DNA of 64,000 nt from Gemmatimonas sp. (GCA_031414535.1 JANNVQ010000001.1:30744-94743); one strand, 5' to 3'. Numbered from the stretch's first letter, positions 27,950 to 57,201 are shown. Notes: generated from the letters alone by a model not told the origin. Translations and numbers: made by a program.

Positions 27950-28672
27950 GTGCTCGACACCACCTTTGAGGATCGCCTCCGTACCACGCTGGCCCGTGTG
28001 GACATTCCCGAGACAATCGCAGCGTATCGCGCGCAGGGTGAGGCAATTTGGATTGCCAACCTGCTCGGCCCCGAGCTGATGAGCCCGCTGCTCAGTGAGA
28101 TGGAGAGCGTGCGCGCGCTGGTGCACCGCAACTACGTACCGACGCAGAAGAAGGGCGGCAGTGTCAGTTACTTCCTGCTGCGCGAGCACGCACCGCAACT
28201 CGTGGCGCTGTACAAGCATCCCGCCCTCATTCGCCTGCTGGAACAGATCACAGGCGAGCAGCTCATGGTGTGCCCCGAGGATGATCCCCACGCCTGCGCC
28301 CTCTACTACTACACAGAGGAAGGCGACCACATTGGGTGGCACTACGACACGTCCTTCTACAAAGGCAAACGGTTCACCGTACTCATTGGCCTCGCGGACC
28401 GCTCCTCGAGCCGGCTACTGTGCCGCCTGAATACCAAGACGCCGGGACGTGAGCCCACAGACTTGGCCCTCGCCACCTCGCCGGGCATGCTCGTCGCCTT
28501 CAATGGCGACACCCTCTGGCACGCCGTCTCGCCACTAGGCGCCGGTGAGGAGCGTATCTCCCTGTCGCTGGAGTACGTCACCGATCAGAGCATGTCGCGG
28601 TGGGGACGCATGATCTCCAACGTGAAGGATGCCGTCGCCTATTTCGGGATTCGTGGGATTCTGCGTCGCTAA
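27950..28672 (+). CDS. 2OG-Fe(II) oxygenase
   Basis: GWHYD (HxD), distal WHAV and R-x-S in ERISLS; GAGGAG ribosome-binding site upstream of the GTG start. Confidence 0.82.
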   Translation: MLDTTFEDRLRTTLARVDIPETIAAYRAQGEAIWIANLLGPELMSPLLSEMESVRALVHRNYVPTQKKGGSVSYFLLREHAPQLVALYKHPALIRLLEQITGEQLMVCPEDDPHACALYYYTEEGDHIGWHYDTSFYKGKRFTVLIGLADRSSSRLLCRLNTKTPGREPTDLALATSPGMLVAFNGDTLWHAVSPLGAGEERISLSLEYVTDQSMSRWGRMISNVKDAVAYFGIRGILRR

Positions 28673-28724
28673 CGCGGTCGCGGGGTTCGCCTATTTGCGC
28701 TGTTCCGTCACTAGTTTCCATAAG

Positions 28725-29393
28725 ATGTGGCGAATTCTCGCTCTCATCCCTTTCGCGCTCGGTGCCCAGCAGATCTCGAGGCCTCCGAGTCCGGCTCATG
28801 CAGAACTCGTGATCGTGCAGGCTGCCATCGCCGATGCGTTCATCGCGGCGGCCAGCGATTCCGTTAACGGCCATATCGAGCGCGCCATTACGCACGCGAG
28901 GCGTGCCGTGGCCCTCGCGCCCCGCGACGCCGACGCGCACTACTGGCTGGCGGCTGCACTGGGGCGGCGCGCGCTCCGTACTGAGTACCGCACGGCACTA
29001 CGCGCTGCGACGGAGTCGTACCGCGAAGCCAATCAGGCCCTGCAGCTCGATTCATTGCACGCCGGTGCGCACGCCGTGGTCGGCCGGTTCAATGAAGAGC
29101 TATCGCGATTCTCGAGGCCCATGCGAATGGTCTTGTCAGCCGTGAGCGGCGAGGAAGACCTGAAGCGCGTGTCCCTCGCGGTCGCGGAACGCCAGTATCG
29201 CAAGGCCATCACACTCGATCCGCGCGCCGTGCTGTTCCGTAACGACTACGGTCGCTTCTTGGTGGGTGTCGGCCGGCTCGCAGAAGCGGCCGAGCAGTCG
29301 CGGGTTGCGCGAACATTGCCGGACCGCATGCCGGCCGACCAATGGCTCCGCGATGATCTTGCCGCGCGGATTGCTCGGGCAAGCGGCAAGTGA
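28725..29393 (+). CDS. Exported TPR-like protein
   Basis: Signal peptide; repeated helical motifs AVALAPRDADAHYWLA, ALQLD...AHA and AITLDP. Confidence 0.7.
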   Translation: MWRILALIPFALGAQQISRPPSPAHAELVIVQAAIADAFIAAASDSVNGHIERAITHARRAVALAPRDADAHYWLAAALGRRALRTEYRTALRAATESYREANQALQLDSLHAGAHAVVGRFNEELSRFSRPMRMVLSAVSGEEDLKRVSLAVAERQYRKAITLDPRAVLFRNDYGRFLVGVGRLAEAAEQSRVARTLPDRMPADQWLRDDLAARIARASGK

Positions 29394-31393
29394 GCGAAGC
29401 CAGAGCGCGGGCTGTGTCCGCGTGGTTCTGGCAACTCGGCGCGGCGACGCTGCGCGGTGTTGCCATTGCCGGCCTGGTGCTCGGTACGGCCGTCGCGGCC
29501 TTACTCTCGGTGGACCGCATCAATCGGCCCGCGCCTGCCGCCGATCTCGGCATCGCCTCGGTAGATCGCAGCGCTCGGCATCGCCGACTGCTCATCTTGC
29601 ACGTGGACAGTTGGCGCGACAGCAGCGCCCGCGACAGCACGCTGTTTCCCTTGACGGCGCAGCTACGTCGGCAGGGCGCATCGGGGACACTGCAGGGCGT
29701 GTACGAGGGGTTCACCATCCCAGCGGTGCGCGCCGCGTTCACCGGGGTTGCCGAGACGCAGTTGGTGAATCTCCTCCAAAACTTCCACTTCACGGCGCTT
29801 CCGCTTTCGTCCGTCTTTCGCGATGCGCAGCGCGTTGGTCGCCGCACCCTGGTGGTGGCGCGTGAACCCTTCGTGCAGTTTGGGCCTGTACTGAAGATTC
29901 GCTACGACAGCATGCCTGGGCAGGACATGTACGCCACCGACGCTCTGCGACCGCAGATTGCGCTCGATGCGTATGCCGAGGGGTATGATGTCGTGGTCTG
30001 TCAGTGGGAGACGTTCGACTGGGTCGCGCATGAAGATGGCGTGAGCACGTTGCGCTATCGCGTCGCCGCGCGACAGGCCGATTCCGTCATCGCCGCCTTC
30101 GCCGCTGCGCGCGCGCCCGAAGACTACCTCTTGGTCTACGGCGACCATGGCCATACGTGGACCGGTGAGCACAAGACTGGGTACGACATTCCGGCCTTCG
30201 TGTTGCTGCTAGGGCCCGACGTGACTGCCGGCGCCGATATCGGCGAGCTCGCCATCACCAACCTGCGGTACCTCGCCAGCCACGCACTCGGCATCACACT
30301 GCGGGGCGCACCCTACGATCTCGCGGCCATTCGGCGCGCTATTCCCATCCGCGGTGAGGCAACGGCTGGTGCGCTAACCGCGACGGACAACGCGACGGGT
30401 GCTGCGAATAACCAGCCGAGCGACAACGCTTCCACCGGACTGAGCGACCGCCCGATGGATTACGTGATTGCCCTCGTCGTCTTTCTTGCCGTTGCCGCCG
30501 TCGCTGCCCTCTGCCTCCGACTCCTCGCCACCCCGTCGTACGCAGTGAGCACGCTACTGCCACCGCTACTCTTGCTCGCCGCAGCGATGCTCCTCACGCC
30601 AAGCATCCCACCCGTGGATGCTTGGCTTCGCCCCGCGGGAGAACTTTGGGTGGTAGTGCTGTACGCCGTGGCGGTGCTAGCGAAGCTCGTGCTCTTCCTG
30701 CGCCGAGCCGACGGGCGTTGGCTCGCGGCAATCATCGCGACCGCCGCCGTGGCGATGTCCGAGTTCTGGAATGTGGTATTCGATCAGCCGCTGGTGATGA
30801 GCGCGTTAATTCTCGCAGCACTCATCGCGTCGTTCGTCCCACGCCAAACGGCGCACAGGGACCTCGCACGCATCGCGCTCCTACAGCTTCTTGTGTATGC
30901 GACGCTCCGAGTGCCACTCTACCTCTTCGCGTGGCTGGACCTCGTACTGTTGGCCGCGTTTCTGATCGCGAAGCATCCACAACTCGTCGCACGACCGGCG
31001 CTGCGCGATGCACTCATCGTACTCACGGCCTATTCGTGCACAATTGGGTGGGTGCCGGGCGGACTGGAGTGGGGCTTCCTCTACAAAGTGTTTCCGGCGC
31101 ACCTCGTGGAACTTGAAGTCCAGCGATTCCTTCCGTTGATTTTGGCCAAGATTCCGCTGGTCTTCGTGCTATTTCTCGTCGTGGCCCGTCGCAGGCCCGA
31201 CCGCGCCCTCGCGCAGGTCGCGATGTTGATGGTGGCGCTGAGGCTCGCCGCGGTATGGACCTTGAGCCTGGCCGGCGCGCCGACGGTGCAACTGTGGCCC
31301 CTCGCGGAGCACGGGGCTTACCTCGCCACCTTCGTCGTGGCCGTGGTCGCTTGGGGATGGCAGCTTCGCTCTGCCGCAAATCGTGTCGGTTAG
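29390..31393 (+). CDS. Membrane AlkP-superfamily transferase resembling GPI ethanolamine-phosphate transferases (PIG-O/PIG-G)
   Basis: One N-terminal TM; soluble domain with LHVDSWR, FTIPAVRAAFTG, FDWVAH, VYGDHG and GEH; long multi-TM C-terminus. Confidence 0.7.
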   Translation: MSEARARAVSAWFWQLGAATLRGVAIAGLVLGTAVAALLSVDRINRPAPAADLGIASVDRSARHRRLLILHVDSWRDSSARDSTLFPLTAQLRRQGASGTLQGVYEGFTIPAVRAAFTGVAETQLVNLLQNFHFTALPLSSVFRDAQRVGRRTLVVAREPFVQFGPVLKIRYDSMPGQDMYATDALRPQIALDAYAEGYDVVVCQWETFDWVAHEDGVSTLRYRVAARQADSVIAAFAAARAPEDYLLVYGDHGHTWTGEHKTGYDIPAFVLLLGPDVTAGADIGELAITNLRYLASHALGITLRGAPYDLAAIRRAIPIRGEATAGALTATDNATGAANNQPSDNASTGLSDRPMDYVIALVVFLAVAAVAALCLRLLATPSYAVSTLLPPLLLLAAAMLLTPSIPPVDAWLRPAGELWVVVLYAVAVLAKLVLFLRRADGRWLAAIIATAAVAMSEFWNVVFDQPLVMSALILAALIASFVPRQTAHRDLARIALLQLLVYATLRVPLYLFAWLDLVLLAAFLIAKHPQLVARPALRDALIVLTAYSCTIGWVPGGLEWGFLYKVFPAHLVELEVQRFLPLILAKIPLVFVLFLVVARRRPDRALAQVAMLMVALRLAAVWTLSLAGAPTVQLWPLAEHGAYLATFVVAVVAWGWQLRSAANRVG

Positions 31394-31400
31394 GACGCCG

Positions 31401-32144
31401 TCACTTCCCTGGCGCGGGTTCGGCGAGGAACATGTAGTTGATGCGATTGTTGTACTGGGCCATGAACTCCGCCTCAGTGAGCGGCGACTTCTTGTCGAGC
31501 CAGTCCTGCATCAACCACAAACGCATGCCGAGTTCGTCCGTCATGAAAGACCAGACGTATTCGGGCTTGGTGCCGTAGAACTCCGCTGAGCCCTGACCAA
31601 ACTCGAATACGATGGTTGGCCGGCTGCGTCGAATAGTATGGACGCCGCCGCGCATGACCATGAACTCGGCGCCTTCCACATCAATCTTGATGAAATCGAT
31701 CTTGACGTCGGCGGGAATGGCATCGTCCATGCGGAGCACCTCAATGATCGTATCGCGCGTCTGGTCTTCGTTCACCGGATACTCGCGGCGTCTAAACCCG
31801 CTGCGCGCCGGCGCCTGAACCGCCAAGACGAAACTCATGGTCCCCGTTGAGTCTCCCAGTGCGCAATTGCAGATCTCGGCTTCAGGGAAGTCCTCTTCCA
31901 ATTGCTGAAAAAAGTTTGGCTGCGGCTCAAAGGCAAAGGTTCGGCCGCGAGGAGCAATCTTCATCAGGTCTTGCAGAATCTCGCCGATGTACGCGCCCAC
32001 GTCGATGCTGGCGCTGGAGTCGTTCATTACGCGGCGCGCCACCTCGATTGTCTGACGGTTGTAGCGCGAGTCCATGCCTTCCTCGCAACCCTGCGTCACC
32101 ACTAAGAGTCCAGCGATCAATGAGACGGAACGAAGATTCAGCAT
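31401..32144 (-). CDS. FkbM family methyltransferase
   Basis: IDVGAYIG, FAFEPQP, NCALG, KIDFIKIDVEGAE and RPTIVFE. Confidence 0.9.
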   Translation of the reverse strand: MLNLRSVSLIAGLLVVTQGCEEGMDSRYNRQTIEVARRVMNDSSASIDVGAYIGEILQDLMKIAPRGRTFAFEPQPNFFQQLEEDFPEAEICNCALGDSTGTMSFVLAVQAPARSGFRRREYPVNEDQTRDTIIEVLRMDDAIPADVKIDFIKIDVEGAEFMVMRGGVHTIRRSRPTIVFEFGQGSAEFYGTKPEYVWSFMTDELGMRLWLMQDWLDKKSPLTEAEFMAQYNNRINYMFLAEPAPGK

Positions 32145-32170
32145 GAGTGATGAAGAAGTGTTTGTTGGGC

Positions 32171-32206
32171 CGCGCCTTCCACCTCAATCTTAATGGAATC
32201 CATCTT
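32171..32206 (-). repeat. 36-bp imperfect direct repeat of the FkbM motif codons at 31668-31703
   Basis: cgcgccttccacctcaatcttaatggaatccatctt versus ggcgccttccacatcaatcttgatgaaatcgatctt (31/36 identical); translates as KMDSIKIEVEGA versus KIDFIKIDVEGA. Confidence 0.8.
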
Positions 32207-32240
32207 ACCCATGCGCTCACCGTAGGGACGGGTCAGAGTC

Positions 32241-33044
32241 CTACACGCGTTCACCACCAGCGATTGAACGAAGGGCATCGGTAACGATCCAGTGCCCACG
32301 GTTCACGAAATGCCACGCCGCGCCGAGCAACTGCGTCAACTGGAACCGAGGACTCCGCGCGCGCGCGCGAAAGCGCGCGCTGATGCGCGGCCAGTCCTGA
32401 GGCCCGACGAGCGGCCGTGCGCTACGCCAGAAGTTGCTCGCTTCTGTGGATACGGCAGGTGCGCTGAACCGGCTCATCACCAACGGCCCGGCAAGTGCGC
32501 CGTACATGCGCTCCATCGCGACCTCAGGCTCTGCAGGGCCGGGCAACCATGATCCGTAGAACGGGACTCGACTGAGGGGCAAGAGTTCCCGCTCCCGGAG
32601 GTGGCGACGCGGTTCGTGTGCATCGAAGTGCGCACCATCTGCCGCTGCCGTGCGCGTAAGTAATCCCAGTTCCGTCAGCCCAGCGTGAGCGAAGGGAACG
32701 AGCGTCGTCGGAAACGCAAAGAAGTATCCATGCTGACGCCGGAACCTGAGGGTGAACCCGTGCGCGCGACAGACCGCAGCAAAGCGCGAATCAAGATCTT
32801 GCGTTGAAGCGTCGAGGAGGAAAGCGTCGGCGTCGTCATCCCAGGGCAGCAAGCCTTGCAGACGCAGCGCTCCGAGCAGCAGTCCTTTGTGCGCCACCGG
32901 GGTAAATCCGTGCTCCTCGAGCGCCGAGATGACGAAAAGCAGGCTATCGACGGCGTCGGTCGCGAACCACGACGGCATCATCAGGATGCGCGGTCGATTA
33001 CTGGGACGTAGCTCCCTCAGCTTGCCGCGGAGCCCGGTCAGCAT
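32241..33044 (-). CDS. LicD family phosphotransferase
   Basis: GLLLGALRLQGLLPWDDDAD matches the LicD GTLLGAVRH.GFIPWDDDID motif; LLPL..VPFYG...P and MYG; the ATG overlaps the upstream stop (TGATG). Confidence 0.8.
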   Translation of the reverse strand: MLTGLRGKLRELRPSNRPRILMMPSWFATDAVDSLLFVISALEEHGFTPVAHKGLLLGALRLQGLLPWDDDADAFLLDASTQDLDSRFAAVCRAHGFTLRFRRQHGYFFAFPTTLVPFAHAGLTELGLLTRTAAADGAHFDAHEPRRHLRERELLPLSRVPFYGSWLPGPAEPEVAMERMYGALAGPLVMSRFSAPAVSTEASNFWRSARPLVGPQDWPRISARFRARARSPRFQLTQLLGAAWHFVNRGHWIVTDALRSIAGGERV

Positions 33045-34060
33045 CAGTTGGCGCGGTCGAGCTTTGCGTTCACCCACACCCAGTGGTGCCTCCATCCCAA
33101 CAGAATACGCCGCAGCGTGAGGATGTAGCGTGCGCCCAGCCAAACACCGAGGACCATCGCCGCAGTCGTCGCCATCGACGAAGGAAGCAACCACAGCAGC
33201 CCAGCGCCAAGCACCGCGCTCCACGTTGGCTCAGGATGCCCGCCCGTGGTGGTGTGCGCATGCATCAGCCGTGCAATCATCTCCGCGCCGGCGCCGGCGA
33301 CGAGCAGCCACCCCCACACCGGATGCACACCTGCGCGCTGCGCCCATACGGCCAAGGCCACGAGTGCGGCCAATTGTACCGCCACGCGCCACGGCAGGCC
33401 GCGCAGAGATCGCATGATGGTCACGCTCACGCTCGCGGCCATTACGCAGCCGAGCACCGTCACGACCGCGTGCCGCGGCCAGGCACCGACCCACAGGGGT
33501 GCGGACCACCACTCACGCATCGCCGGAAGAGCCCAACTGCCATAAAACAGCGTGGCGAGTACGATGGCCTCGAGCGTGCCCCATCGAGTGAAGTGCAAGC
33601 GGCGCTGTATTGCACGCTGGGCGTAGGTAATCGTGAAGCCCGCGACCATGAGCAAGGTCATCAGCGGGGTGAGCGGGGTGGCCAAGGTGCCAAGCATGGC
33701 GCCCCACCCGAATACCAGAATGCAGCCTGCCCAGTAATCGCAGTGGTGGTCGAGGAAGTCTCCAAGTGGGGAGGTCGTCCCGGTGGCCTTCGCCTGCATG
33801 CCATCCAAGTGATCGCCGGCTACGTAGAGCTGGATGCAGAGCAGTTGCAGGAGCGCGAACCAAGTAGCACCGAGTCGCTCGACGACGAGCGCGCCCGCCA
33901 ACACCGCCAGGAGCAGACCGGTTGACAAGAGCGTGAGCACGTTCGCAGCCAGCCATCGCGGCAGCAGCGGGAACAAGCGCTCGAACCACAGGCGCGTGAG
34001 CCACGGACGAGCTACCGACGCATCGGTGAACTCGTAACGGTTATCGGGCGTAGAAGGCAC
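33044..34060 (-). CDS. CDP-alcohol phosphotransferase of the eukaryote-like CEPT/EPT type
   Basis: LPRWLAANVLTL and DHLDGMQAKATGTTSPLGDFLDHHCD (DxxDGxxAR...GxxxDxxxD, with K for R); multiple TM segments. Confidence 0.85.
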   Translation of the reverse strand: MPSTPDNRYEFTDASVARPWLTRLWFERLFPLLPRWLAANVLTLLSTGLLLAVLAGALVVERLGATWFALLQLLCIQLYVAGDHLDGMQAKATGTTSPLGDFLDHHCDYWAGCILVFGWGAMLGTLATPLTPLMTLLMVAGFTITYAQRAIQRRLHFTRWGTLEAIVLATLFYGSWALPAMREWWSAPLWVGAWPRHAVVTVLGCVMAASVSVTIMRSLRGLPWRVAVQLAALVALAVWAQRAGVHPVWGWLLVAGAGAEMIARLMHAHTTTGGHPEPTWSAVLGAGLLWLLPSSMATTAAMVLGVWLGARYILTLRRILLGWRHHWVWVNAKLDRAN

Positions 34061-34114
34061 GGCGGGAATCTAGCGCATGCCTCGGCGGCTGAGAGAGCTG
34101 ATAGATTGTCTCAA

Positions 34115-37889: not shown

Positions 37890-38608
37890 TGCACGCGCTC
37901 ATTCTCGCGGCCGGCGTTGGCTCACGGCTGGGCCTCGCCGATGACCGACCCAAATGCTTGGTGGAAATCGGCGGCCGCGCGCTTCTTGATCGCTACCTCG
38001 ATGCACTCGCGCTACTCGGCGTCCCAGTGACCATCGGGGTCGGCCACCAAGCCGAGCGCATCGCGGCGCACGTGGGCACACGGGCACAGTTGGTGGTGAA
38101 CCCCAACTACAAGCAGGGCTCGATTACCACGCTCGCGCACACGATGCAGAGCCTTCCGCCAGGGATTGAGCAGTTACTCGTCCTCGATGGCGATGTGTTT
38201 GCGCCCGCCTCGTTCTTCGCGACGCTTGTTGCTCACAATGGCAACGCCTTGCTGGTGGATATCGGGACGGAGTTCACCGACGAGCAGTACATGGCCGGTA
38301 TCACCGCGGACCGCGTCCGGCAGTTGCGGCGCGGGCCGGTGCCGGGGCACGAGCAGCACGGCGAGTGGGTGGGCTTCGCTCGCTTGACCGCGTCGGCCGT
38401 CGAAGCGCTGCGAAATGGCGTGGCCGTGCAGGTGGGGCGCGGTGAAGTGTCGGGTGGGTACGAGGACGCGCTGGCCTCGCTGCTTACTACGCACCATGTG
38501 GTGGCGCTAGCGACGCAGGGCGCGCCGTGGGTGGAGATTGATTTTCCGGCGGATCTGGCGCGGGCGGGTGAGCTTGCTGCGAACGAGCGGACCGAAGGTC
38601 CGCACTAA
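37889..38608 (+). CDS. PntC/LicC-like (phosphonate) cytidylyltransferase
   Basis: ALILAAGVGSRLG...RPKCLVEIGG, LDGDV, GEWVGF, YEDAL and WVEIDFPADL; TGATG overlap with the aminotransferase. Confidence 0.85.
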   Translation: MHALILAAGVGSRLGLADDRPKCLVEIGGRALLDRYLDALALLGVPVTIGVGHQAERIAAHVGTRAQLVVNPNYKQGSITTLAHTMQSLPPGIEQLLVLDGDVFAPASFFATLVAHNGNALLVDIGTEFTDEQYMAGITADRVRQLRRGPVPGHEQHGEWVGFARLTASAVEALRNGVAVQVGRGEVSGGYEDALASLLTTHHVVALATQGAPWVEIDFPADLARAGELAANERTEGPH

Positions 38609-38623
38609 GCACTCACTGGAGGG

Positions 38624-40380: not shown

Positions 40381-40454
40381 GCTTGAAGCTAAGTGAGGCG
40401 GGACGCGCCCGTCGAGTGGTAGATTTGCCCCCTGCGTGGGGCTATCCTAGACCT

Positions 40455-44801: not shown

Positions 44802-44811
44802 ACGTGACGCG

Positions 44812-49249: not shown

Positions 49250-49281
49250 TGCTAGCGCAGATGACCTAGGGCGGACGTCGA

Positions 49282-50958
49282 TCAGTACCGACCGGTGCGG
49301 TCGCCGAAGAAGAGTCGTACTTCTTGCTGCCGGAGGCCCGGGGGGGCGTTGAGTGGGACGCCTACCTCAAGGGTCAGCATTTGCTTCGCGCCGGCCGGTA
49401 TCGCGACCATGACCGATGCGCCCACCGCCGCGTACCAAGGCGACGAGCGGCCAAAGGGCGCATCACCAGCCCAAATGCGTCCGGTCTGCGACAAGAACGC
49501 AAACGCCACTTCTGCTCGGCGGGTCGTCAGTGGAAGCCGGTGCCGTTCCTCGAGTCCGATGACCATACGGCCGGCCCCGCCGAAATCCGTATTGCGGAAA
49601 CCGAGGAGGCCGGTATCATCCTCTCGCAGCGTGAGCTGGGTGGGAATCCGCGCGTTGCGCGTGGCCGTGCCCGCAAGCGTGAGGGCGGTCAGATGCCCTT
49701 CGTTGCGCTTCAGCGCGAGCGCCGTGCGCCCACTCGCGGCGGCCTCTCCCTCGGCCGCGCCCATTCGCGGTGAGCTCCAGAACGCACTCACGTTCCACCG
49801 CAGCAGTGCGTGCTCGTTCCCAATGGCGCCTGAGTTTCCGGCACCGTACACGTGGTCGGTCTCGTCACGTTGAAGAGCGGCGATGCCGAGGCGCGCGCTA
49901 AACCATGTGTCGTAGCCCAGCGTGACGTCCTCTGGAGCACTCAGCGCTCCGAGGCCGCGTATGGGGCGGAATCGGAGGCGACGGTAGCTCGCACCGACGC
50001 CTATGCGAGTGGCGTCGAAGACGGGGTAACGAAGAGCCACCTCGGGCGGCGGCGGAATGTCCACGGGTCCGTTGTCCCGAATCTGCACAACGCGTCGGCG
50101 TTGGGCTCGCTCCCAATCTAGGGTGCCATTCACGAACCACGGAGCGTTGTCCGGTCCAAGGCGCCGGCTCCCGATAAAGGCCGCGGTGCGTTGCTCGTAT
50201 TCGACGGTGACGCTTCGGAGGACCGGATCGAAGAGCGTATAAAACCCGCGGTTCGACGCGACCAGCGAGTTCCAAGAATTGCGTTGGAAGTTGGTGAGTG
50301 CCGGACGCTGGAGTCCAAACGACCAACTATCGACAAAGGGCCGCGAGGAGAAGGCGAGGTCGAGAATGATTGGTTGCCCAAGGAACTGCGGATTCTTGAA
50401 CTTCGCGCCCCACCCCACTTCGCCGCCGCGCCCCAGTTCGGTGAGCAGCCGAAACCCTTTGCCGGTGCCGGCAATGCTGCCCGTGCCGAGTTCGATGCCA
50501 GCCGGCAAGCCTTCCACGCCCCAGACTTCCGTGTAAAGCACCCACTCGTCGATTGTCTCGACGCGGAGTCGCACCTCGCCCTCCGAGTGCGGGAGCACAC
50601 GGATGGCGACATCGCTGATATACGGCTGCGCGCGCAGGACGCGCTCCGATTCCACGCGGCGCTGCTCCTCACATACATCTCCCTCCCGGAGCAACAGAAA
50701 TCGCTCCACCACTTTCGTCCGGGTTTGCGGCTGCAACGCAAACATCGCGTTGTTGACGACGGTCGCCACAGGGTCAAGGCGGGGGCCAAGCAGGGAGCGC
50801 CGGGCCCCGACGAACTCAATCGCTGCGATGGTCCGGCCGTCGCAGCGTTCCTCCGGAGCGATAGGCTCCAGCCTTTGGGCAACGAGAGGGGACGGCATCC
50901 CCACGACGAGCAGGAGGGCGGCACGGAGGAGGCACTGCGGGAACGGCGTAAGTCGCAT
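49282..50958 (-). CDS. BamA/TamA-like (POTRA plus beta-barrel) outer-membrane protein
   Basis: Signal peptide; TRTKVVERFLLLREGD....ESERVLR POTRA-like motif; amphipathic beta-strands; LLGF...FGG..R loop. Confidence 0.6.
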   Translation of the reverse strand: MRLTPFPQCLLRAALLLVVGMPSPLVAQRLEPIAPEERCDGRTIAAIEFVGARRSLLGPRLDPVATVVNNAMFALQPQTRTKVVERFLLLREGDVCEEQRRVESERVLRAQPYISDVAIRVLPHSEGEVRLRVETIDEWVLYTEVWGVEGLPAGIELGTGSIAGTGKGFRLLTELGRGGEVGWGAKFKNPQFLGQPIILDLAFSSRPFVDSWSFGLQRPALTNFQRNSWNSLVASNRGFYTLFDPVLRSVTVEYEQRTAAFIGSRRLGPDNAPWFVNGTLDWERAQRRRVVQIRDNGPVDIPPPPEVALRYPVFDATRIGVGASYRRLRFRPIRGLGALSAPEDVTLGYDTWFSARLGIAALQRDETDHVYGAGNSGAIGNEHALLRWNVSAFWSSPRMGAAEGEAAASGRTALALKRNEGHLTALTLAGTATRNARIPTQLTLREDDTGLLGFRNTDFGGAGRMVIGLEERHRLPLTTRRAEVAFAFLSQTGRIWAGDAPFGRSSPWYAAVGASVMVAIPAGAKQMLTLEVGVPLNAPPGLRQQEVRLFFGDRTGRY

Positions 50959-51024: not shown

Positions 51025-52872
51025 GTGACCCCGACTCCACTTGGCGTTCTGCGCCACTATTGGCGCGTGGCGCGAGTCCAGCCGGTTCAGCTCGCTGTGC
51101 CGCTCGGGCTCGCGTTGCTCTCCGCCGCCTGCGAGGCCGCCGCGTTCGCGTTGCTGATTCCGCTCACGAAGTCGATCGGGCGGAACTCGGTGGAGGCCTT
51201 GGAGACGTCGCCGGCGCTCTCGTGGATCACATCGCTCGTGCCGAGTTCAGTCGCGACGACCGAGAAGCGCGTGGTGGCGCTCATCCTCATCATTCTCGGA
51301 CTCATCATCGCCGCACGGTCCGGAAAGCTCCTCTTCGACTACCTGCGCTCCGTGTACGTCGCGGGACGGACGGCGCGATACCGTGTGGACGTGGGCGCGG
51401 AGACCTTCAGCCGCGTGCTCAGCTTCGGACGTCAGTACTTCGACCGAAAGGCCATCGGCGCGATTGACGCCGAGATTGGGTGGTCCAGCTCGGTCATTCG
51501 GCTCTTGCTCGCCGCGGAGGAGTGCATCCGCTACGCGCTGTATCTCGTGGTCAAGGCCGTCGTGATGCTAGCCATCTCGCTCCCGCTCGCCATCGCATTC
51601 ACGCTGTCGCTCCCGTTCGTGAGTTGGTTCATGCGGTGGATCGACGTGCGCGTCAGCCGTATCGCGCACGAGAGCATGGAAGCCGAGAGCAAGGTCCGCT
51701 CACGCATCCTCGACATCCTCGGCTCCATCCCGCTAGTCAAGGTGAATTCCCAAGAGCGCGAAGCCGCGAGCACCTACATCGACGCGCTGCACGAAGCCAA
51801 GGACATCACCATTCGACGCGATCGCGTCATGAGTCTCCGGTATCCGATCGAGGAGGTCTTCATTCTCCTCATTATGCTCATGGTGCAAGGCGCCGTCATG
51901 GTCTCGGCCGGCAGTTTTTCGCCCGGGGACCTCGTTGAGTTCGGCGCCTTCCTGTTTATCGTCCAACAAGCGCTTCCGGACTTTCGGTATTTGAGCATGT
52001 TCCGGTCGCAAATTGCGGAGGAATGGCCGCGGCTCTCAGCCTTGGCGGGACTGTTCTCCGACGATGAGAAGTTCATCGTCCCGTCGGGACCGCGACCCTT
52101 CACGCCACCGCAGCGTGCAATCGAGATTAAGGATCTCTCGTTTGGGTATCAGCCCGGCGTGGACGTCTTGCACGGCGTGCACGCAACGATCGAGGCCGGC
52201 AAGGTGACCGCAATCGTGGGCTATTCGGGTGCCGGGAAAACCAGCCTCGTGGATTTGATTGCACGCTTGTACGACTGCCCACCGGGTTCGATCACCGTTG
52301 ATGGCGTGGACATTCGGGAGTTCGCGGTGGCGTCGTTGCACGCGCGCATGGCACTCGTGAGCCAGGACGTGTGGCTCCTCAATCGTTCACTCCGCGACAA
52401 CCTTACCTTTGGGCTGGACCGCGAGGTGCCCAACGATGAATTGTTGGTCGCGCTCGGCGATGTGGAACTTCGCCCCTTTTACGACGGACTCCGCGATGGA
52501 TTCGACACCAACATTGGCGACCGCGGCGTGCGCCTCTCCGGCGGCCAACGCCAGCGCCTAGCTTTGGCTCGCGCGCTCTTGCGCGACCCGGACATCCTCA
52601 TCCTCGACGAGGCCACGTCGGCACTCGATAGCGTAATTGAGCAGCGTGTGGCACGCGCCATTCAACGCCGCGCCGCGGGACGCACGCTCATCGTGATTGC
52701 GCATCGCCTCTCCACTATCCGCGACGCCGACATGATCCTGGTAATGGACAACGGCCGCGTGGTGGAACAGGGGTCCTGGAACGATCTCCTTCAGAGTGGC
52801 GGACTGTTGCACCGATTGCATGAAGCACAGGCGTCGGAGTCTACGGCCGCAGCGTCCGCCACGCGAACGTAA
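51025..52872 (+). CDS. MsbA-like ABC exporter (fused TMD and NBD)
   Basis: Walker A GYSGAGKT, LSGGQRQR, ILDEATSALD and IAHRLST; N-terminal TM helices; start approximate. Confidence 0.9.
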   Translation: MTPTPLGVLRHYWRVARVQPVQLAVPLGLALLSAACEAAAFALLIPLTKSIGRNSVEALETSPALSWITSLVPSSVATTEKRVVALILIILGLIIAARSGKLLFDYLRSVYVAGRTARYRVDVGAETFSRVLSFGRQYFDRKAIGAIDAEIGWSSSVIRLLLAAEECIRYALYLVVKAVVMLAISLPLAIAFTLSLPFVSWFMRWIDVRVSRIAHESMEAESKVRSRILDILGSIPLVKVNSQEREAASTYIDALHEAKDITIRRDRVMSLRYPIEEVFILLIMLMVQGAVMVSAGSFSPGDLVEFGAFLFIVQQALPDFRYLSMFRSQIAEEWPRLSALAGLFSDDEKFIVPSGPRPFTPPQRAIEIKDLSFGYQPGVDVLHGVHATIEAGKVTAIVGYSGAGKTSLVDLIARLYDCPPGSITVDGVDIREFAVASLHARMALVSQDVWLLNRSLRDNLTFGLDREVPNDELLVALGDVELRPFYDGLRDGFDTNIGDRGVRLSGGQRQRLALARALLRDPDILILDEATSALDSVIEQRVARAIQRRAAGRTLIVIAHRLSTIRDADMILVMDNGRVVEQGSWNDLLQSGGLLHRLHEAQASESTAAASATRT

Positions 52873-54241
52873 GGAGGCCCGCACCCGCAAGCAGCGGGAG
52901 GAGGGCAATCCACGGGGCCCCCATGCCAATCGCCCAGCCCGCACTTCCGAGACAGAGCAGTCCCGCCCCGGCCTCAACAAATACGATAGCCGATGCAGCC
53001 CCCGACGCCCGTGCGGACTTCGGAGTACGCTTGAACTCCCCGCCGAAGGAGCGAAGGCCAGCGATGCCCGCTTTGAGCAGCAGTGGTGCCATGCCGATCC
53101 CGATGGCAGCCGCCTCAATCTCGAGCCATCCACGCCGCCATCCCACCGACAGCGCCTGCCACGCCGTCTGTGCACCGAGGCCCACGAAGAAGGCGGTCAT
53201 TGGGAGATCGGCAGCCAAGAAGCCGACGACGGGGTGATACGAACGAGCCCAGGCAACGGGGCCTGCCGTGAGTGCCAGCGCGAGTAGCAAGATGGGGAAG
53301 CAATAACCGGTGACCTGCAAGCCCACCGTGAGCCGATCGCGCCACCCCGCGTGCCGCAAGAGGGGCATCGCTTTGCGTGCCATCTGAAACGCGCCGCGTG
53401 ACCAGCGGGCCTGCTGAATGCGCAAGGCCGCGACATTTGCCGGAATCTCGGCGGGAATGACCGCGTCGTAGTCGAACGCGAATCGCCAACCGCGAAGCCA
53501 CGCTCGCAACGACAGATCCAAGTCCTCGGCAAGTGTCTCCGCTGACCAGCCCCCAGCTTCAGCAATGACGCTCCGCCGCCAGACGCCCCCGGAGCCATTG
53601 AAGTGGAAGAACTGTCCTGACCGACTGCGCGCCAACTGTTCGATGGCGAAGTGTCGGTCTATCCAGAATCCTCCAGTCCGCTCAATCAGCGTACGCGGCG
53701 TGCCTAGCCCTCCCCATCGCCCCTGCACCATGGCGATCCCGGGGTCAGCGAACCAGGGGATCAGCTGACGCAGAAGGTTCGGGGCGGGCACGAAGTCGGC
53801 ATCGAGAATCAAGATGAACTCGCCGGTTGCAGACGACAGCGCGTCCTGCAGCGCACCCGCCTTGTACCCGGTACGAACAGATCGCTGAATGTGCGCCACA
53901 TCAAGCCCACGGAGTCGCAAGCGCTCGACAGTCGGCGCGGCAATCGACGGGGTCTCGTCAGTGGAATCATCGAGCAACTGGACCTGAAGAAGCTCCGGTG
54001 GCCAATCGAGCTCGCCAACCGCCGTGAGAAGCCGTACAACCACCGCTTCCTCGTTGAAGACAGGCAGTTGCACCGTGACGCGCGGTAAGGTGACTGGAAG
54101 CGGCGGTCGCGTCGGTGCCGCGCGACGAAGAGTCCAGGCGAGCCAAATCAGCCACGTGTTGTAATAAATCCAGCAGTACAACAACACCCAGAAGCTGAGC
54201 ACCAAGCCCAGCACCGCAGCGGCAATTAGCGAGAAATTCAA
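52841..54241 (-). CDS. Membrane GT2 glycosyltransferase, cellulose-synthase-like type
   Basis: VTVQLPVFNE, QLLDDSTD, GYKAGAL, DADF, FNGSGG.WR, TLAEDLDLS and QQARW. Confidence 0.9.
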   Translation of the reverse strand: MNFSLIAAAVLGLVLSFWVLLYCWIYYNTWLIWLAWTLRRAAPTRPPLPVTLPRVTVQLPVFNEEAVVVRLLTAVGELDWPPELLQVQLLDDSTDETPSIAAPTVERLRLRGLDVAHIQRSVRTGYKAGALQDALSSATGEFILILDADFVPAPNLLRQLIPWFADPGIAMVQGRWGGLGTPRTLIERTGGFWIDRHFAIEQLARSRSGQFFHFNGSGGVWRRSVIAEAGGWSAETLAEDLDLSLRAWLRGWRFAFDYDAVIPAEIPANVAALRIQQARWSRGAFQMARKAMPLLRHAGWRDRLTVGLQVTGYCFPILLLALALTAGPVAWARSYHPVVGFLAADLPMTAFFVGLGAQTAWQALSVGWRRGWLEIEAAAIGIGMAPLLLKAGIAGLRSFGGEFKRTPKSARASGAASAIVFVEAGAGLLCLGSAGWAIGMGAPWIALLPLLAGAGLLTFAWRTLRP

Positions 54242-54271
54242 GAGATCGTTCGGATGGTATGCTTTGTCGCG

Positions 54272-55237
54272 CTACGCCGTTCGGCGCCGCACCACGCGAT
54301 GGAACAGCGACAATTCCTGATCAAAGATGAACCGAAGCAACAAGCGCGACAACGAACGATGCGCGTGCAGGCCCTCGTACGCCTCCGGCGCGGCGGCGCG
54401 CAATTCAGGCAAGCGATGCCAAGGCACCGATGGAAAATCGTGATGCTCGTTGTGGTATCCCACATTGAGCGCCACGCGGTTCACGGGCCCGTAATAACTT
54501 GACGTTTCCTGCTCGTCGGTGGTAAGGAAATGCTCTTGAATCCAGCGCGCGCCAAGTGGGTGCAGGCCGATGGAGAAGAAGAACGACAGCACAAGATAGG
54601 CCATCGCGCTCGGGCCCATCATCCGCCACACCGCCACCGTGAAGCCGATTTGCACCACCCAGTTGACCGCGACCCAGCGATCCATCACGGCAATCTCGCG
54701 CGTGCGCGCCGTCCGGGCGATCTGGAAGAGCGGAAACAGCAGCAACCACAACGCCTTACCCACAAACCATTGCTGGATGAGGCGGGCTTCCCAGTAGCTC
54801 GGGAGGTCCGCATCAAGTTCGTGCACCCCTTGGTACGAGTGGTGCTTCAGGTGGTAACGGCGGAACGAAATCGCGCTCGGAAACAACTGTGGAAGGTTGG
54901 CGACGATGGCGGCCACCAGATTCATCCACCCGCGCCGGAACACAAGATTGTGCGCACACTCGTGTACCATCACGAACAAGGCATGGTCTGCAAAGGCCCC
55001 CACGAGATACGCGGCACCGAAAATCCACCACCACGAGGCATCGCGTAGCAGGTACGCGATGAACAGCTGCAGCGCGACCGTGCCCACGATGAGCAGGGCC
55101 GTGTACGGATTGCGCCCAATGAGCGCGCGCACCTCAGGATGCCGCTCCAAGATCTCTTGGGTGCGGCCCCGGTGTGGTTCGCGCTCGGTGGACCAAACGA
55201 AATCGGTGCGGGGCGGACGCAAGGGACTGTGGGGCAA
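54272..55237 (-). CDS. Sphingolipid delta-4 desaturase / C4-hydroxylase (DEGS-like)
   Basis: N-terminal DFVWSTEREPHRGRTQEILERHPEV (Lipid_DES-like); HECAH, RYHLKHH, LHPLGARWIQEH and SYYGP.N....NVGYHNEHHDFP. Confidence 0.9.
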   Translation of the reverse strand: MPHSPLRPPRTDFVWSTEREPHRGRTQEILERHPEVRALIGRNPYTALLIVGTVALQLFIAYLLRDASWWWIFGAAYLVGAFADHALFVMVHECAHNLVFRRGWMNLVAAIVANLPQLFPSAISFRRYHLKHHSYQGVHELDADLPSYWEARLIQQWFVGKALWLLLFPLFQIARTARTREIAVMDRWVAVNWVVQIGFTVAVWRMMGPSAMAYLVLSFFFSIGLHPLGARWIQEHFLTTDEQETSSYYGPVNRVALNVGYHNEHHDFPSVPWHRLPELRAAAPEAYEGLHAHRSLSRLLLRFIFDQELSLFHRVVRRRTA

Positions 55238-55267
55238 AAGGGACAGAGTAACGCCAGCTAAAGGGGC

Positions 55268-55924
55268 CTATGAACCATAATTCGTGGAGCGGCCGCGCGT
55301 GTCATACGCCGCGATGAAACACTCTCCACCCGACCAGTGCGGGCTTAAGTACGACTCGAACCGCGTGGGCGGATACCGTTCGAAGAACTCTTCGTCAAAC
55401 GTATGGAGATGATAAGCCAGACGCGTCGCCACTGGTTCCTTCCACGGAGCAGCAATGACCACGAGCCGACGCGCCGTGCTCAAAAGCTTCTCGAGCAATT
55501 GGCCGGGTTCGTCGGTATGCTCGAGCGTGTGGGAGCAGACGACCACATCGAATTGCTCATCGAGGTCAAAAACGTCGCGCACACGATAGTTGACCCTCGG
55601 AAGCGTAATTGCAGCTCGAGGGTACCAATGAGAGTTGTTGTCGATTGCCGTGACGGTGAAGCGCAGCCGACTCCACGAGCGGGGATGGAACACGCGGGCG
55701 ATCAGGTCAGACCCTGCCGCAGTTCGCGCCCCAACATCGAGTAGCGTCAGCGTCTGCTGTTCCGGGCTCGCCAGCTCCTCCTGCAGAACCCGACAAAGGT
55801 CAACGGCAAAGCCGATTGACTGAGAATCATCTCGAATGTGTCGCTGGCCGCCCGGCGTGATGGCAACCGCGGCGTGCAGCGCCCGGGAAACCCGCGAGAC
55901 GAGACGAAAGAGCGACGTTTTCAT
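55268..55924 (-). CDS. Class I SAM-dependent methyltransferase-like protein
   Basis: LLDVGA and FDVVVCSHTLEH. Confidence 0.7.
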   Translation of the reverse strand: MKTSLFRLVSRVSRALHAAVAITPGGQRHIRDDSQSIGFAVDLCRVLQEELASPEQQTLTLLDVGARTAAGSDLIARVFHPRSWSRLRFTVTAIDNNSHWYPRAAITLPRVNYRVRDVFDLDEQFDVVVCSHTLEHTDEPGQLLEKLLSTARRLVVIAAPWKEPVATRLAYHLHTFDEEFFERYPPTRFESYLSPHWSGGECFIAAYDTRGRSTNYGS

Positions 55925-57198: not shown

Positions 57199-57201
57199 GC
57201 C

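Follow-up and report, generated by a model that had tools for sequence, protein, structure and literature searches.

A gene cluster of an uncultured Gemmatimonadota bacterium is a candidate for the synthesis of a phosphonate-bearing sphingolipid

Results

We analysed a 64,000-nucleotide stretch of Gemmatimonas sp. DNA (the window) and found that a 28-kb block of 23 genes at positions 27950-55924 probably builds a sphingolipid of the cell envelope that bears aminoethylphosphonate (AEP) or hydroxy-AEP. Judged by their predicted products, the genes fall into three modules: AEP synthesis (PepM, Ppd and AepZ), head-group activation and transfer (PntC, a eukaryote-CEPT-like transferase, a PIG-O-shaped membrane enzyme and a 2OG oxygenase), and ceramide synthesis (a FAAL-ACP-alpha-oxoamine synthase (AOS) fusion, CerS, a CerR-like reductase and a glycosyltransferase). 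Because the same gene order recurs in a second genome (G007) and the linkage recurs re-ordered in others, the grouping exceeds chance, and this conserved linkage yields testable candidates for the attachment of phosphonate to sphingolipid.

Intergenic gaps are at most 96 bp, many genes overlap by 1-4 bp, and the GC content of the block (0.60-0.67) matches that of the remainder of the window. A single contig of run X1, a possible source run, crosses 30000-49900 with zero differences, and X2, a run of the same study, covered all 30 bins; the block is thus not a mis-join. The window's genome (G000), that of an uncultured Gemmatimonadota bacterium, holds no close second copy for 21 of the 23 queries; the 2OG oxygenase has a 63% paralogue directly upstream of the window and the Wzi-like protein a 44% paralogue. 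Every gene named in the first-pass annotation of this DNA was recovered in the block by profile, PDB, motif or structure-model evidence.

The AEP module opens with a fusion of PEP mutase and a nucleotidyltransferase-like domain (34115-35710, plus strand). PepM matches the PEP_mutase Pfam family with 185 bits, and 5UNC, a PEP mutase, is its best match in the PDB (E 5e-101); against TIGR02320 it scores 256-259 bits, below the cut-off of 319.55, as do its relatives (263-290 bits). EDK-x5-NS is the motif of PEP mutases. The EDKxxPKxNS loop reads EDKQYPKLNS at residues 119-128, the motif is present in 12/12 aligned fusions, and Asn stands where phosphonopyruvate hydrolase 2DUA carries Thr. The phosphonopyruvate decarboxylase Ppd (35707-36831, plus strand) exceeds its cut-off (TIGR03297, 394.9 against 312.5 bits). 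Directly after it in the operon lies a putative AepZ/PhnW-type AEP transaminase (36828-37889, plus strand), whose position is consistent with an AEP aminotransferase and whose best model, TIGR03301, gives 278 bits against a cut-off of 360.8. The conversion of PEP to AEP by these three enzymes is established chemistry. A stand-alone PntC-type cytidylyltransferase follows (37889-38608, plus strand); its best PDB match is Treponema denticola PntC (6PD1, 218 residues), and R13 and K22, equivalent to R15 and K25 of that protein, are invariant in 13/13 sequences. It keeps the GxG(T/S)R-x-PK signature, which is degenerate in the PepM-fused domain and gone from 9/9 aligned Gemmatimonadota fusions.

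Head-group transfer could be carried out by a CEPT/CPT1-like CDP-alcohol phosphotransferase (33044-34060, minus strand; PF01066), a candidate CMP-AEP:lipid transferase. Residues D83, D86, D104 and D108 of its DxxDG...GxxxDxxxD motif are invariant in 33/33 sequences, and the motif Arg is replaced by Val or Lys in 29/33. Searched against the PDB, its profile matches only the eukaryotic CPT1 and CEPT1 (E 6e-17), enzymes that use diacylglycerol; the acceptor here could thus be diacylglycerol as well. Apart from the motif, the enzyme shows no relationship to the CDP-alcohol transferase found in a Caulobacter-type sphingolipid cluster (E 6e-4). An Fe/2OG oxygenase (27950-28672, plus strand), a candidate AEP C1-hydroxylase, matches HalD/2OG-FeII_Oxy_3 and carries HxD at 131-133. 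Its gene is found in 8 of 12 clusters of the CEPT clade, and homologues (46-51%) also occur in three pepM clusters without ceramide genes nearby. A LicD-family CDP-donor phosphotransferase (32241-33044, minus strand; PF04991, a weak 29.6 against 22.6 bits) has a PWDDDxD motif and is present in 3/12 clusters.

The second candidate transferase is a membrane enzyme of the alkaline-phosphatase (AP) superfamily (29390-31393, plus strand), which may pass AEP from a lipid to a glycan. The eukaryotic PIG-O, PIG-G and PIG-N place an AP-superfamily domain with a Thr/Ser nucleophile between an N-terminal helix and a multi-helix membrane domain. The enzyme shares this layout: one N-terminal helix, a soluble domain with the Thr/Ser nucleophile, and a C-terminal helix bundle. 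Its predicted model (pLDDT 89.7) has the NPP fold (Z 26.5, rmsd 2.8, 252 aligned residues), and the metal and nucleophile residues D73, T/S109, D210, H214, D252, H253 and H261 are conserved in 57-58 of 58 sequences. Its Atlas similarity to GPI EtNP transferases is 0.90, at ranks 27-30 only. The ORF itself has no Pfam match, and the PIGO_PIGG (PF19316) and PigN (PF04987) domains are absent from it and from all 36 relatives scanned of the 150 listed. This is the ORF that the first-pass annotation called PIG-O-like. The gene is present in 10/12 CEPT-clade clusters.

The ceramide module is built around a FAAL-ACP-AOS fusion (45932-49249, minus strand; Pfam AMP-binding, PP-binding and Aminotran_1_2), with the ACP serine in LGLDS and the PLP lysine in GTLSK. 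The AOS domain matches Sphingobacterium SPT best in the PDB (E 3e-67), but lies below all three SPT cut-offs (NF047599, 280/500; NF047600, 295/640; NF047603, 206/670 bits) and scores higher as BioF than as SPT (358 vs 295 bits). In a 33-row tree it falls in an SgaB/RkpG-type, PKS-linked clade (100/100, 15 rows), apart from the enzymes encoded in spt-cerS-cerR operons by other Gemmatimonadales; L162 stood in for PfSgaB. RkpG and WcbT are names of the rhizobial and Burkholderia PKS-AOS capsule-anchor genes. The AOS is 54% identical to a PKS-adjacent Pseudomonas AOS and 49% to that of S. meliloti. The fusion reported at first pass is thus present, whereas a canonical SPT identity was rejected on the cut-offs and the clade. 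SPT activity with L-serine is proven for PfSgaB, a PKS-linked AOS with this arrangement, and serine is strongly preferred by it to both alanine and glycine (PMC12134224).

The adjacent GNAT gene (44812-45972, minus strand) encodes a bCerS-family N-acyltransferase, 32% identical to E. coli YghO over 99% of its length (E 2e-53); yghO is given as the orthologue of Caulobacter CC_1154/CerS (PMC9386255). A homologue of the CerR-like extended SDR (43821-44801, minus strand; Epimerase family) follows CerS in 20/20 loci, and the SDR shares 28% identity (E 1e-11) with the epimerase encoded in a Caulobacter-type cluster (a Roseomonas positional equivalent). A membrane GT2 (GT2c; 42706-43872, minus strand; Glyco_transf_21, 44 against 21.7 bits), a candidate ceramide glycosyltransferase, is found in 9/12 clusters and immediately adjoins the CerR-like gene in 5 of these 9. 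The block also encodes an FA2H-like fatty acid hydroxylase (42080-42709, plus strand; PF04116, 71.5 bits; four His boxes; 3/12 clusters) and a DEGS-like sphingolipid delta-4 desaturase/hydroxylase (54272-55237, minus strand; PF00487 and PF08557 over cut-off, the latter, Lipid_DES, with 53 against 23 bits; three His boxes). The DEGS-like gene is missing from the G007 locus and adjoins FAAL-AOS in G445 and G451. Catalytic residues are intact in PepM, PntC, CEPT, the PIG-O-like enzyme, AOS, ACP, DEGS and FA2H.

The remaining genes include three further GT2s: GT2a (38624-39601, minus strand), with three C-terminal hydrophobic segments, and the soluble GT2b (39598-40380, minus strand), both also in G007, and the membrane GT2d (52841-54241, minus strand; 7/12 clusters). 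A SAM methyltransferase (55268-55924, minus strand) is likewise shared with G007; an FkbM-family methyltransferase (31401-32144, minus strand; TIGR01444, 93.8 against 37.7 bits) occurs in 2/12 clusters. An MsbA/HepA-like ABC exporter (51028-52872, plus strand; start estimated, the listed ORF beginning at 50191) scores 399 bits as HepA_fam_ABC and 325 as MsbA, both below cut-off, and is present in 4/12 clusters. Profile matches confirmed all four GT2s, both methyltransferases, the 2OG oxygenase and the exporter of the first annotation. Three proteins that it left unnamed lie in the same block: a TPR protein (28629-29393, plus strand; Pfam TPR; 8/12 clusters), a Wzi-like outer-membrane barrel (40455-42083, plus strand; PF14052, 64.7 bits), with Wzi-family genes also in the G441, G442 and G444 clusters, and an Omp85/BamA-like outer-membrane protein (49282-50958, minus strand, start estimated; weak TIGR03303, 22 bits), with homologues in 6/12 clusters.

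The originally proposed span proved to be free of gaps, yet the system appears to extend to a GT-C/GT2 satellite at 14970-19843, which we assign to it because its homologues sit inside related clusters. The satellite encodes an NDP-sugar epimerase/reductase (14970-15911, plus strand; Pfam Epimerase, 213 bits), with homologues in the clusters of G443 (65%), G445 (38%) and L168/L169 (41%), and a 570-residue polytopic membrane protein (15883-17595, minus strand), a probable PMT-like GT-C glycosyltransferase. The latter has no Pfam match and about nine hydrophobic segments; its Atlas matches (0.99/0.97) are to clusters in which 26% of members carry PMT and 11% carry PMT_2, and homologues (48-55%) lie in the clusters of G443, G445 and L168/L169. 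Next to it are a methyltransferase-GT2 fusion (17574-19058, minus strand; Pfam), a probable polyprenyl-phosphate sugar synthase with homologues (58-81%) in the G441, G443, G445 and L168/L169 clusters, and a SAM methyltransferase (19115-19843, plus strand; Pfam) with homologues in the G443 and G445 clusters.

We compared 12 Gemmatimonadota genomes that carry this CEPT clade. All three modules share one locus in 6/12, in three gene orders (G000/G007, G446/G447/G448 and G445), and both halves, phosphonate and ceramide, are present somewhere in the genome in 9/12. The linkage of the two gene sets in relatives, on which the first-pass proposal had been staked, is thus conserved and survives re-ordering. 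In G443 and G444 the ceramide block lies elsewhere in the genome; G441 is without the fused AOS, and neither half was found in G450. DEGS, FA2H, LicD and FkbM, each present in 2-3 of the 12 genomes, are predicted to be accessory and outside the conserved core; the claim of a complete locus therefore stands for this strain but not for the system. In an even draw of 401 genomes of the phylum, the CEPT clade was found in 3, the PIG-O-like enzyme in 3, the fused-AOS clade in 7 and Ppd over cut-off in 8, and all four coincide in the same 3 genomes. G000 is one of these 3, and G007 is its congener.

In G442 and G451, PntC, CEPT and the PIG-O-like enzyme lie among ceramide genes with no pepM nearby. 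In G442 (5.9 Mb, with a 1.38-Mb contig) nothing matched pepM at E 1e-15 and no protein passed the Ppd cut-off; in G451 pepM is on a different contig in an unrelated context. Since the transfer module stays with the ceramide genes in both, it is more than a passenger of pepM. Pairwise identities correlate between CEPT and PIG-O-like (rho 0.83), PIG-O-like and PntC (0.79), CEPT and PntC (0.72), and PIG-O-like and GT2c (0.64); CEPT does not co-vary with CerS (-0.05) or with FAAL (0.13), and does so only moderately with AOS (0.42). CEPT, PntC and the PIG-O-like enzyme thus appear to be inherited as one unit, and the co-variation of CEPT with the PIG-O-like enzyme points to a lipid-donor relay.

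Discussion

From the gene identities we propose the following pathway. PepM, Ppd and AepZ would convert PEP to AEP, and the stand-alone PntC would form CMP-AEP; the 2OG oxygenase may hydroxylate C1, a modification that the Bacteriovorax head group carries. FAAL would load a fatty acid on the fused ACP, and AOS would condense the acyl chain with L-serine, the substrate suggested by its clade. N-acylation by CerS and reduction by the SDR would yield dihydroceramide, as in a fused form of the AasR-AcpR-SPT system, and DEGS and FA2H would trim it in some strains. The CEPT-like enzyme could then move AEP from CMP-AEP to a lipid hydroxyl. The resulting AEP-lipid may be the end product, ceramide-AEP. 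Alternatively, it may serve as a membrane donor, and the PIG-O-shaped enzyme, with Thr109 as nucleophile, could pass AEP from it to the sugar on a glycosylceramide, itself a product of GT2c and the other glycosyltransferases. We favour the relay as part of the pathway, given that CEPT, PntC and the PIG-O-like enzyme share a single inheritance. The weakest step is the last, in which the ABC exporter, Omp85-like and Wzi-like proteins might flip and place the lipid.

A phosphonosphingolipid, the product proposed at first pass, is most likely by linkage, but the possible diacylglycerol acceptor leaves room for a somewhat unlikely alternative: the modules cluster since envelope genes travel together and share no product. 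CEPT would make diacylglyceryl-AEP, the PIG-O-like enzyme would pass AEP to LPS, capsule or a protein glycan, as LtaS/EptA-like sulfatases would in relatives, and the ceramides would be ordinary (glyco)ceramides. The CPT1/CEPT1 homology and the separate histories of the three modules fit this account. Distant CEPT relatives (27-33%) occur without a CerS match (E 1e-15) in 10 of the 18 non-clade genomes searched, 9 of these 10 with Ppd over cut-off, and those of Bacteroidota lie beside pepM and a sulfatase of LtaS/EptA type, where the neighbouring 10 kb contain no ceramide gene. Against the phosphonosphingolipid reading, G124 and G295 have the ceramide block without phosphonate genes, and the DNA fetched around ppd held no ceramide genes in 5/8 Ppd-positive genomes of the phylum. 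In G133 a related pepM cassette adjoins a squalene/phytoene synthase, so cassettes of this sort enter more than one type of lipid cluster. The Wzi-like barrel, and GT4s and dTDP-rhamnose genes nearby in some genomes, also suit an envelope glycan, and with lpxC and waaA present LPS is available as an acceptor. However, the transfer genes are mixed in with ceramide genes in five arrangements, in G442 and G451 they remain there although pepM does not, and GT2c co-varies with the transfer module yet adjoins CerR.

The head group and the backbone might also differ from those proposed. It is improbable that the transfer genes serve a general amino-alcohol-phosphate route to ceramide phosphoethanolamine or a sphingomyelin-type lipid, with AEP only where pepM is present. 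G442, with PntC, CEPT, the PIG-O-like enzyme and a ceramide block, the LicC-like fold of PntC, and the absence of a PhnS2-type AEP-binding protein from all 5 genomes searched would agree with it. However, AEP synthesis is encoded in 10/12 CEPT-clade genomes, in 9 with the pepM block beside CEPT, the best solved match of PntC (6PD1) prefers AEP, G442 is a genome of unstated completeness, and for G000 itself even this route would end in an AEP sphingolipid. Highly improbable is an AOS that does not use serine and makes a 1-deoxy base from alanine or glycine, or condenses phosphonoalanine with acyl-ACP to a phosphonate capnine analogue with C-P in the backbone. In favour of it, the enzyme is not in the canonical SPT clade and scores below every SPT cut-off, and cysteate-using AOS enzymes exist (28EH is among the PDB matches); yet Ppd, AepZ, PntC and CEPT suggest that AEP is activated and then transferred to a hydroxyl, this fused AOS also accompanies CerS and CerR without a pepM block in G124, G295 and G442, and PfSgaB strongly prefers serine.

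A literature search turned up no account of a cluster of this kind; the genes of the Bacteriovorax cluster lay outside the comparison. In the account that Li and Horsman give of the 'Burkholderiales_CDP-OH' or Group 1 phosphonolipid clusters, the product is uncharacterised (2022, PMC8942020; Yu et al. 2013 cited there). Six functions of the seven-gene core described there are matched here, by function only: a Ppm-PntC-like fusion, Ppd, AEPT, a second PntC, a 2OG-Fe oxygenase and a CDP-alcohol transferase; the core also counts a second 'phospholipid' gene. The present locus differs from Group 1 in that its transferase belongs to the eukaryotic CEPT type, comes together with a PIG-O-shaped enzyme, and lies among FAAL-ACP-AOS, CerS, CerR-like, desaturase and glycosyltransferase genes. 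According to the same source, Bacteriovorax stolpii makes a sphingophosphonolipid, 1-hydroxy-2-AEP ceramide, and has a cluster in GCF 761; the likeness to our locus lies in the predicted product class and the AEP genes, and the 2OG oxygenase could provide the 1-hydroxy group. For Bacteriovorax, no transferase is known to have been assigned.

The locus shares with the Caulobacter system (AasR, AcpR, Spt, CerS, CerR and CpgA-D) an acyl-ACP ligase, ACP and AOS (PMC9386255, PMC11324152, PMC12275187), a YghO/CC_1154-type CerS, an epimerase-type reductase, and a cytidylyltransferase with a CDP-alcohol transferase, as CpgD and CpgA are in the sphingolipid head-group pathway (PMC12275187, PMC11324152). 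It differs in that ligase, ACP and AOS form one chain, the AOS is of another clade, no ceramide kinase is present, the transferase is unrelated beyond its motif, and the predicted head group is a phosphonate. The AOS clade is that of Pseudomonas SgaAB (PMC12134224) and the rhizobial and Burkholderia capsule-anchor genes, but here FAAL-ACP rather than a PKS supplies the acyl chain, coupled to CerS and phosphonate genes.

In the eukaryotic GPI/GIPL relay, CEPT/EPT makes PE and PIG-N/O/G move EtNP to mannose, and T. cruzi anchors carry AEP (PMC5648825, PMC11765627). The locus differs in having no PIGO_PIGG/PigN domain and no inositol genes seen within it, but resembles the relay in its CEPT-like donor synthase, PIG-O-shaped enzyme, GT-C-like and polyprenyl-sugar-synthase-like genes, ceramide anchor and AEP. 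We regard this likeness as an analogy of logic that does not imply pathway homology. By that analogy, GT2 and GT-C enzymes might glycosylate a ceramide anchor with sugar from a polyprenyl-sugar donor, and the PIG-O-shaped enzyme might add AEP or hydroxy-AEP in the periplasm from the CEPT-made donor, a scheme that we consider rather unlikely. If true, it would make the CEPT-like enzyme the first ceramide-AEP synthase to be assigned, and would give a phosphonoglycosphingolipid surface coat, a parallel in bacteria to the GIPL/GPI logic of trypanosomes.

Gene Content and Integrity of the Locus

The block at 27950-55924 holds 23 packed genes, with intergenic gaps of at most 96 bp and a host-like GC content. 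The first-pass annotation had named a long list of genes there, and family scans confirmed every one of them. Mis-assembly of the block was ruled out by the matching locus of a genome of the same genus (G007), by a contig from sequencing run X1 (possibly the assembly source) that covers window positions 30000-49900 with no change, and by run X2 from the same study, which covers all 30 bins. Runs X3-X5 held small shares only. The 64-kb window, G000:C1:30744-94743, contained no tRNA genes, and promoter and terminator scans of it gave no informative signal.

Phosphonate and Transfer Modules

The pepM, ppd, aepZ, and pntC genes form a run of four in which neighbors overlap by 1-4 bp. PepM scored 256 bits, under the TIGR02320 cut-off of 319.55, and its closest solved structure is PEP mutase 5UNC. 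Phosphonopyruvate hydrolase was ruled out by the PepM loop motif, which carries an Asn that the hydrolase lacks, and by the adjacent ppd. Ppd scored above its family cut-off; for AepZ, the aminoethylphosphonate (AEP) transaminase model ranked best, with a score under its cut-off. No PhnS2-type AEP uptake protein was found in the five genomes searched.

In 9/9 aligned Gemmatimonadota copies, the PepM-fused nucleotidyltransferase domain no longer carries the GxGxR...PK signature. Stand-alone PntC retained the signature Arg and Lys in 13/13, and its best structural match is T. denticola PntC, for which the same two residues are reported to be required (PMC6697681). Because the stand-alone protein keeps these residues and this match while the fused domain has lost its signature, stand-alone PntC is the likely CMP-AEP maker.

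The CEPT-like enzyme, a CDP-alcohol phosphotransferase, has four Asp invariant in all 33 rows drawn from 88 matches, and its profile matched only eukaryotic CPT1/CEPT1 (five sequences) in the PDB. In the related genome G441, a single 865-aa open frame (L134:5288-7885) spans CEPT and a Wzi-like barrel, either a fusion or a read-through.

The 667-aa PIG-O-like protein was modeled from a 58-row alignment (pLDDT 89.7) in place of an unusable single-sequence fold (pLDDT 41). The model shows one helix, then an NPP-like domain, then a C-terminal helix bundle, the same layout as in PIG-O/N/G. It matched NPP with Z 26.5 (rmsd 2.8, 252 aligned) and EptA, MCR-1, and LtaS with Z 19-20; metal ligands and Thr/Ser109 are conserved. 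Atlas similarity to PIG-O/N/G was 0.90. A PIG-O or PIG-N Pfam domain was absent from the query and from the 36 relatives scanned of 150 listed, no GPI EtNP transferase structure was among the best 50 fold-search matches, and a PDB sequence search returned nothing significant. At best, the model suggests a protein that resembles PIG-O/N/G in working, and we do not assign it to that family; it may alternatively be a phosphodiesterase.

Ceramide Module

The GNAT protein (CerS) aligned over its full length with E. coli YghO (32% identity, E 2e-53), whose listed Caulobacter orthologue is the CerS CC_1154 (PMC9386255). In all 20 loci returned from relatives, the CerS homologue is flanked by AOS (alpha-oxoamine synthase) and SDR genes. 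The FAAL part of the FAAL-ACP-AOS fusion shares 34% identity with the ligase from a cluster of the Caulobacter type that a Roseomonas plasmid carries, and the SDR is 28% identical to the epimerase of that cluster. From these likenesses, the fusion reads as a putative AasR-AcpR-SPT within one chain.

An SPT fused to FAAL-ACP had been proposed from the sequence. The fusion stood, but its AOS lies outside canonical SPT, scoring below all three SPT cut-offs. In a 33-row tree it fell in a 100/100 clade that also contains two Gram-positive enzymes and the PKS-adjacent ones from Pseudomonas, Microbulbifer, and Sinorhizobium; BioF rows, Kbl-like rows, and the stand-alone SPT-like enzymes found in other Gemmatimonadales fell elsewhere. 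The PKS-linked AOS genes of rhizobia and Burkholderia go by the names RkpG and WcbT. BioF gave the top NCBIfam score, under its cut-off, and was ruled out by the separation from annotated BioF in the tree, by the FAAL-ACP fusion, and by the cerS that follows. PfSgaB, a PKS-adjacent AOS, is a demonstrated L-serine SPT (PMC12134224); the SgaB likeness of our AOS was scored against a proxy of the same arrangement (L162, 54%). Elsewhere, locus L253 (G063:C105) carries a type I PKS, an SgaB-type AOS, an SDR, and a CerS homologue in a single run, so that here CerS is joined to a cluster of the SgaAB type.

The His boxes of the DEGS and FA2H homologues are intact, and both genes are accessory, each in 3/12 genomes; a PDB sequence search with DEGS returned nothing significant. 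CerS matches occurred in 24/24 genomes from two other Gemmatimonadales families and in 3/36 genomes of the source genus. Ceramide synthesis thus looks widespread, and widely encoded, among Gemmatimonadales and patchy within this genus. All 18 loci from the two families (L015-L032) hold a canonical-looking spt-cerS-cerR operon. G124 encodes a 1647-aa FAAL-acyl-CoA dehydrogenase-ACP-AOS fusion (L251:9606-14549; L249). In G124, G295, and G443, a PAP2 (IPC-synthase-like) gene adjoins cerS instead of CEPT, which suggests another head-group route.

Linkage and Inheritance of the Modules

A CEPT profile search of GTDB genomes yielded 61 loci, of which the 12 at at least 41% were Gemmatimonadota; we dropped L082 (G449, unpublished) and added the source genome, G000. 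Gene presence was counted per cluster in the regions fetched for these 12 genomes. All three modules share one locus in six (G000, G007, G446, G447, G448, and G445), in three gene orders; pepM is split across two contig ends in G448, and two contigs were joined via a shared split gene in G445. The co-location of pepM with ceramide genes, offered as a check when the locus was first read, was therefore recovered in 6/12 CEPT-clade genomes.

In G451, the transfer module lies among ceramide genes, and the pepM block sits next to a histidine kinase gene on a separate contig. G442 has the transfer module among ceramide genes, with no pepM match and no Ppd over the cut-off; its ceramide cluster, which includes genes for PntC, CEPT, and the PIG-O-like protein (G442:C1:612955-629676; L138, L139), is a candidate pathway for phosphoethanolamine, phosphocholine, or scavenged-AEP sphingolipids. 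G443 and G444 keep PepM and the transfer module together, with the ceramide block elsewhere in the genome. In G441, pepM and CEPT are present, the CerS-family gene 22 kb off is divergent, and a fused AOS is missing; G450 has PntC and CEPT only, on an 8.8-kb contig. A metagenome search gave 7/71 loci at at least 45%; contigs L168/L169 carry PntC or CEPT with 2OG, PIG-O-like, GT2c, and CerR-like genes.

The system is rare, with pepM in 2/61 relatives. Among 401 genomes drawn evenly from the phylum, CEPT occurred in 3, the PIG-O-like protein in 3, fused-clade AOS in 7, and Ppd over its cut-off in 8; all four occurred together only in G000, G007, and G349 (= G446). DNA fetched around ppd held no CerS or AOS in 5/8 Ppd genomes, and the ceramide blocks of G124 and G295 had no phosphonate genes in the ~30 kb fetched. 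These controls cut both ways.

Comparing pairwise identities over 8-11 genomes, we found three units: PepM-Ppd (rho 0.83); CEPT-PIG-O-like-PntC (0.72-0.83), joined by 2OG at 0.51-0.69 and GT2c at 0.49-0.64; and AOS-CerS (0.53). PepM against AOS gave 0.15. CEPT gave 0.41 against PepM, 0.42 against AOS, 0.13 against FAAL, and -0.05 against CerS. Co-evolution of CEPT with ceramide genes was thus not found for CerS and FAAL, and Mantel p-values overstate because kin are non-independent. By these comparisons, the modules have separate histories and have been assembled together more than once. Repeated joining fits selection for a common product, and it fits an envelope island too. CEPT is tied to the PIG-O-like enzyme, and this co-variation argues for a donor relay.

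A Proposed Pathway and Its Alternatives

The genes are identified, and we infer all substrates and acceptors. PEP would be converted to AEP and then CMP-AEP, and fatty acid plus serine to dihydroceramide. The CEPT-like enzyme would transfer AEP onto lipid, from which the PIG-O-shaped enzyme would move it to a sugar, most simply that of a GT2c-made glycosylceramide; GT2c adjoins the CerR-like gene in 5/9 genomes. The 2OG oxygenase may yield 1-hydroxy-AEP; clusters that lack ceramide genes likewise have homologues of it after pepM.

We consider it fairly probable that the phosphonate is carried on a sphingolipid, given the one-locus linkage. Phosphonate on glycerolipid and glycans only is rather unlikely, and draws on the wider CEPT family. 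Most loci from Bacteroidota have a distant relative (22-35%) adjoining pepM, ppd, and aepZ. An LtaS/EptA-like sulfatase lies beside them in 3/3 scanned loci of Bacteroidota and in one locus from a spirochaete; similar sulfatases occur in the G441, G444, G445, G448, and L168 clusters and, by clustering, in G446, G447, and G451. Of 18 non-clade genomes searched, 10 contained a CEPT relative but gave no match to CerS. From these findings, the CEPT family would transfer phosphonate to lipids that are not necessarily ceramides; this is what chiefly limits the AEP-bearing ceramide or glycosylceramide proposed in the first-pass annotation. That sphingolipid product is still the one we favor; some other outcome is improbable. 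Replacement of lipid A was rejected, with lpxC and waaA present in 5/5 genomes searched.

A pepM-ppd-pntC/CEPT-aepZ/LtaS-like sulfatase cassette is conserved in Cytophagales and other Bacteroidota (L095-L133, e.g., L097 and L108); carriers include named species, a cultured route to the CEPT family. In L060 (G133:C5), the pepM cassette is of another kind, with PntC, an LPG_synthase_TM protein, and a 2OG oxygenase, and it directly adjoins genes for a squalene/phytoene synthase and a radical SAM protein.

Relation to Known Systems

Ceramide-AEP is a major lipid in molluscs and cnidarians and also occurs in Bacteriovorax. It is reported in T. cruzi, where the AEP-to-ceramide transferase is without assignment (PMC5648825). 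The phosphonate half of the block is much like the seven-gene Group 1 phosphonolipid core in the accessible part of PMC8942020, which assigns the sphingophosphonolipid cluster of B. stolpii to a different family, gives no characterized lipid for this core or for the two largest predicted phosphonolipid cluster groups, and has no mention of serine palmitoyltransferase. In the accessible part of PMC11334938, a survey of SPT-like genes, phosphonates and Gemmatimonadota go unmentioned. We found no cluster joining AEP and ceramide genes in literature that excluded most subscription journals, and the B. stolpii genome lay outside the comparison; because of this coverage, novelty of the combination is likely, not proven.

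The locus is a real, conserved, and apparently undescribed combination of known modules and two unusual enzymes. It narrows to a few single-chain candidates (PntC, CEPT-like, PIG-O-like, FAAL-ACP-AOS, CerS, and CerR-like) that are directly expressible and assayable and give direct tests of AEP attachment to ceramide. To bacteria it adds a one-chain fused sphingoid-base route and enzymes of the CEPT and DEGS types.

Surroundings of the Locus

A satellite at 14970-19843 (epimerase, GT-C-like membrane protein, methyltransferase-GT2 fusion, methyltransferase) has 38-81% homologues within the related G443, G445, and L168/L169 clusters, and the fusion occurs also in G441, as do GT22 and GT87 genes. 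These glycosyltransferases suggest possible periplasmic glycosylation from a lipid-linked sugar. The 8 kb between satellite and main block include amidase and beta-lactamase-fold genes: 19951-28342 encodes three beta-lactamase-fold hydrolases, an amidase, a Tat-type SDR, and an alkaline-phosphatase-family protein. Three large VPS10/BNR-repeat proteins, with many paralogues in the genome, and an amidase occupy 3095-14965. Just upstream of the window, a second 2OG oxygenase (G000:C1:30300-30824) is 63% identical to 27950-28672 and lies near a glycine-betaine-type ABC binding protein. Past the block, 56020-58500 holds an unannotated Thr/Gly-rich lipoprotein-like ORF and then a DUF5723/PorV-like barrel.
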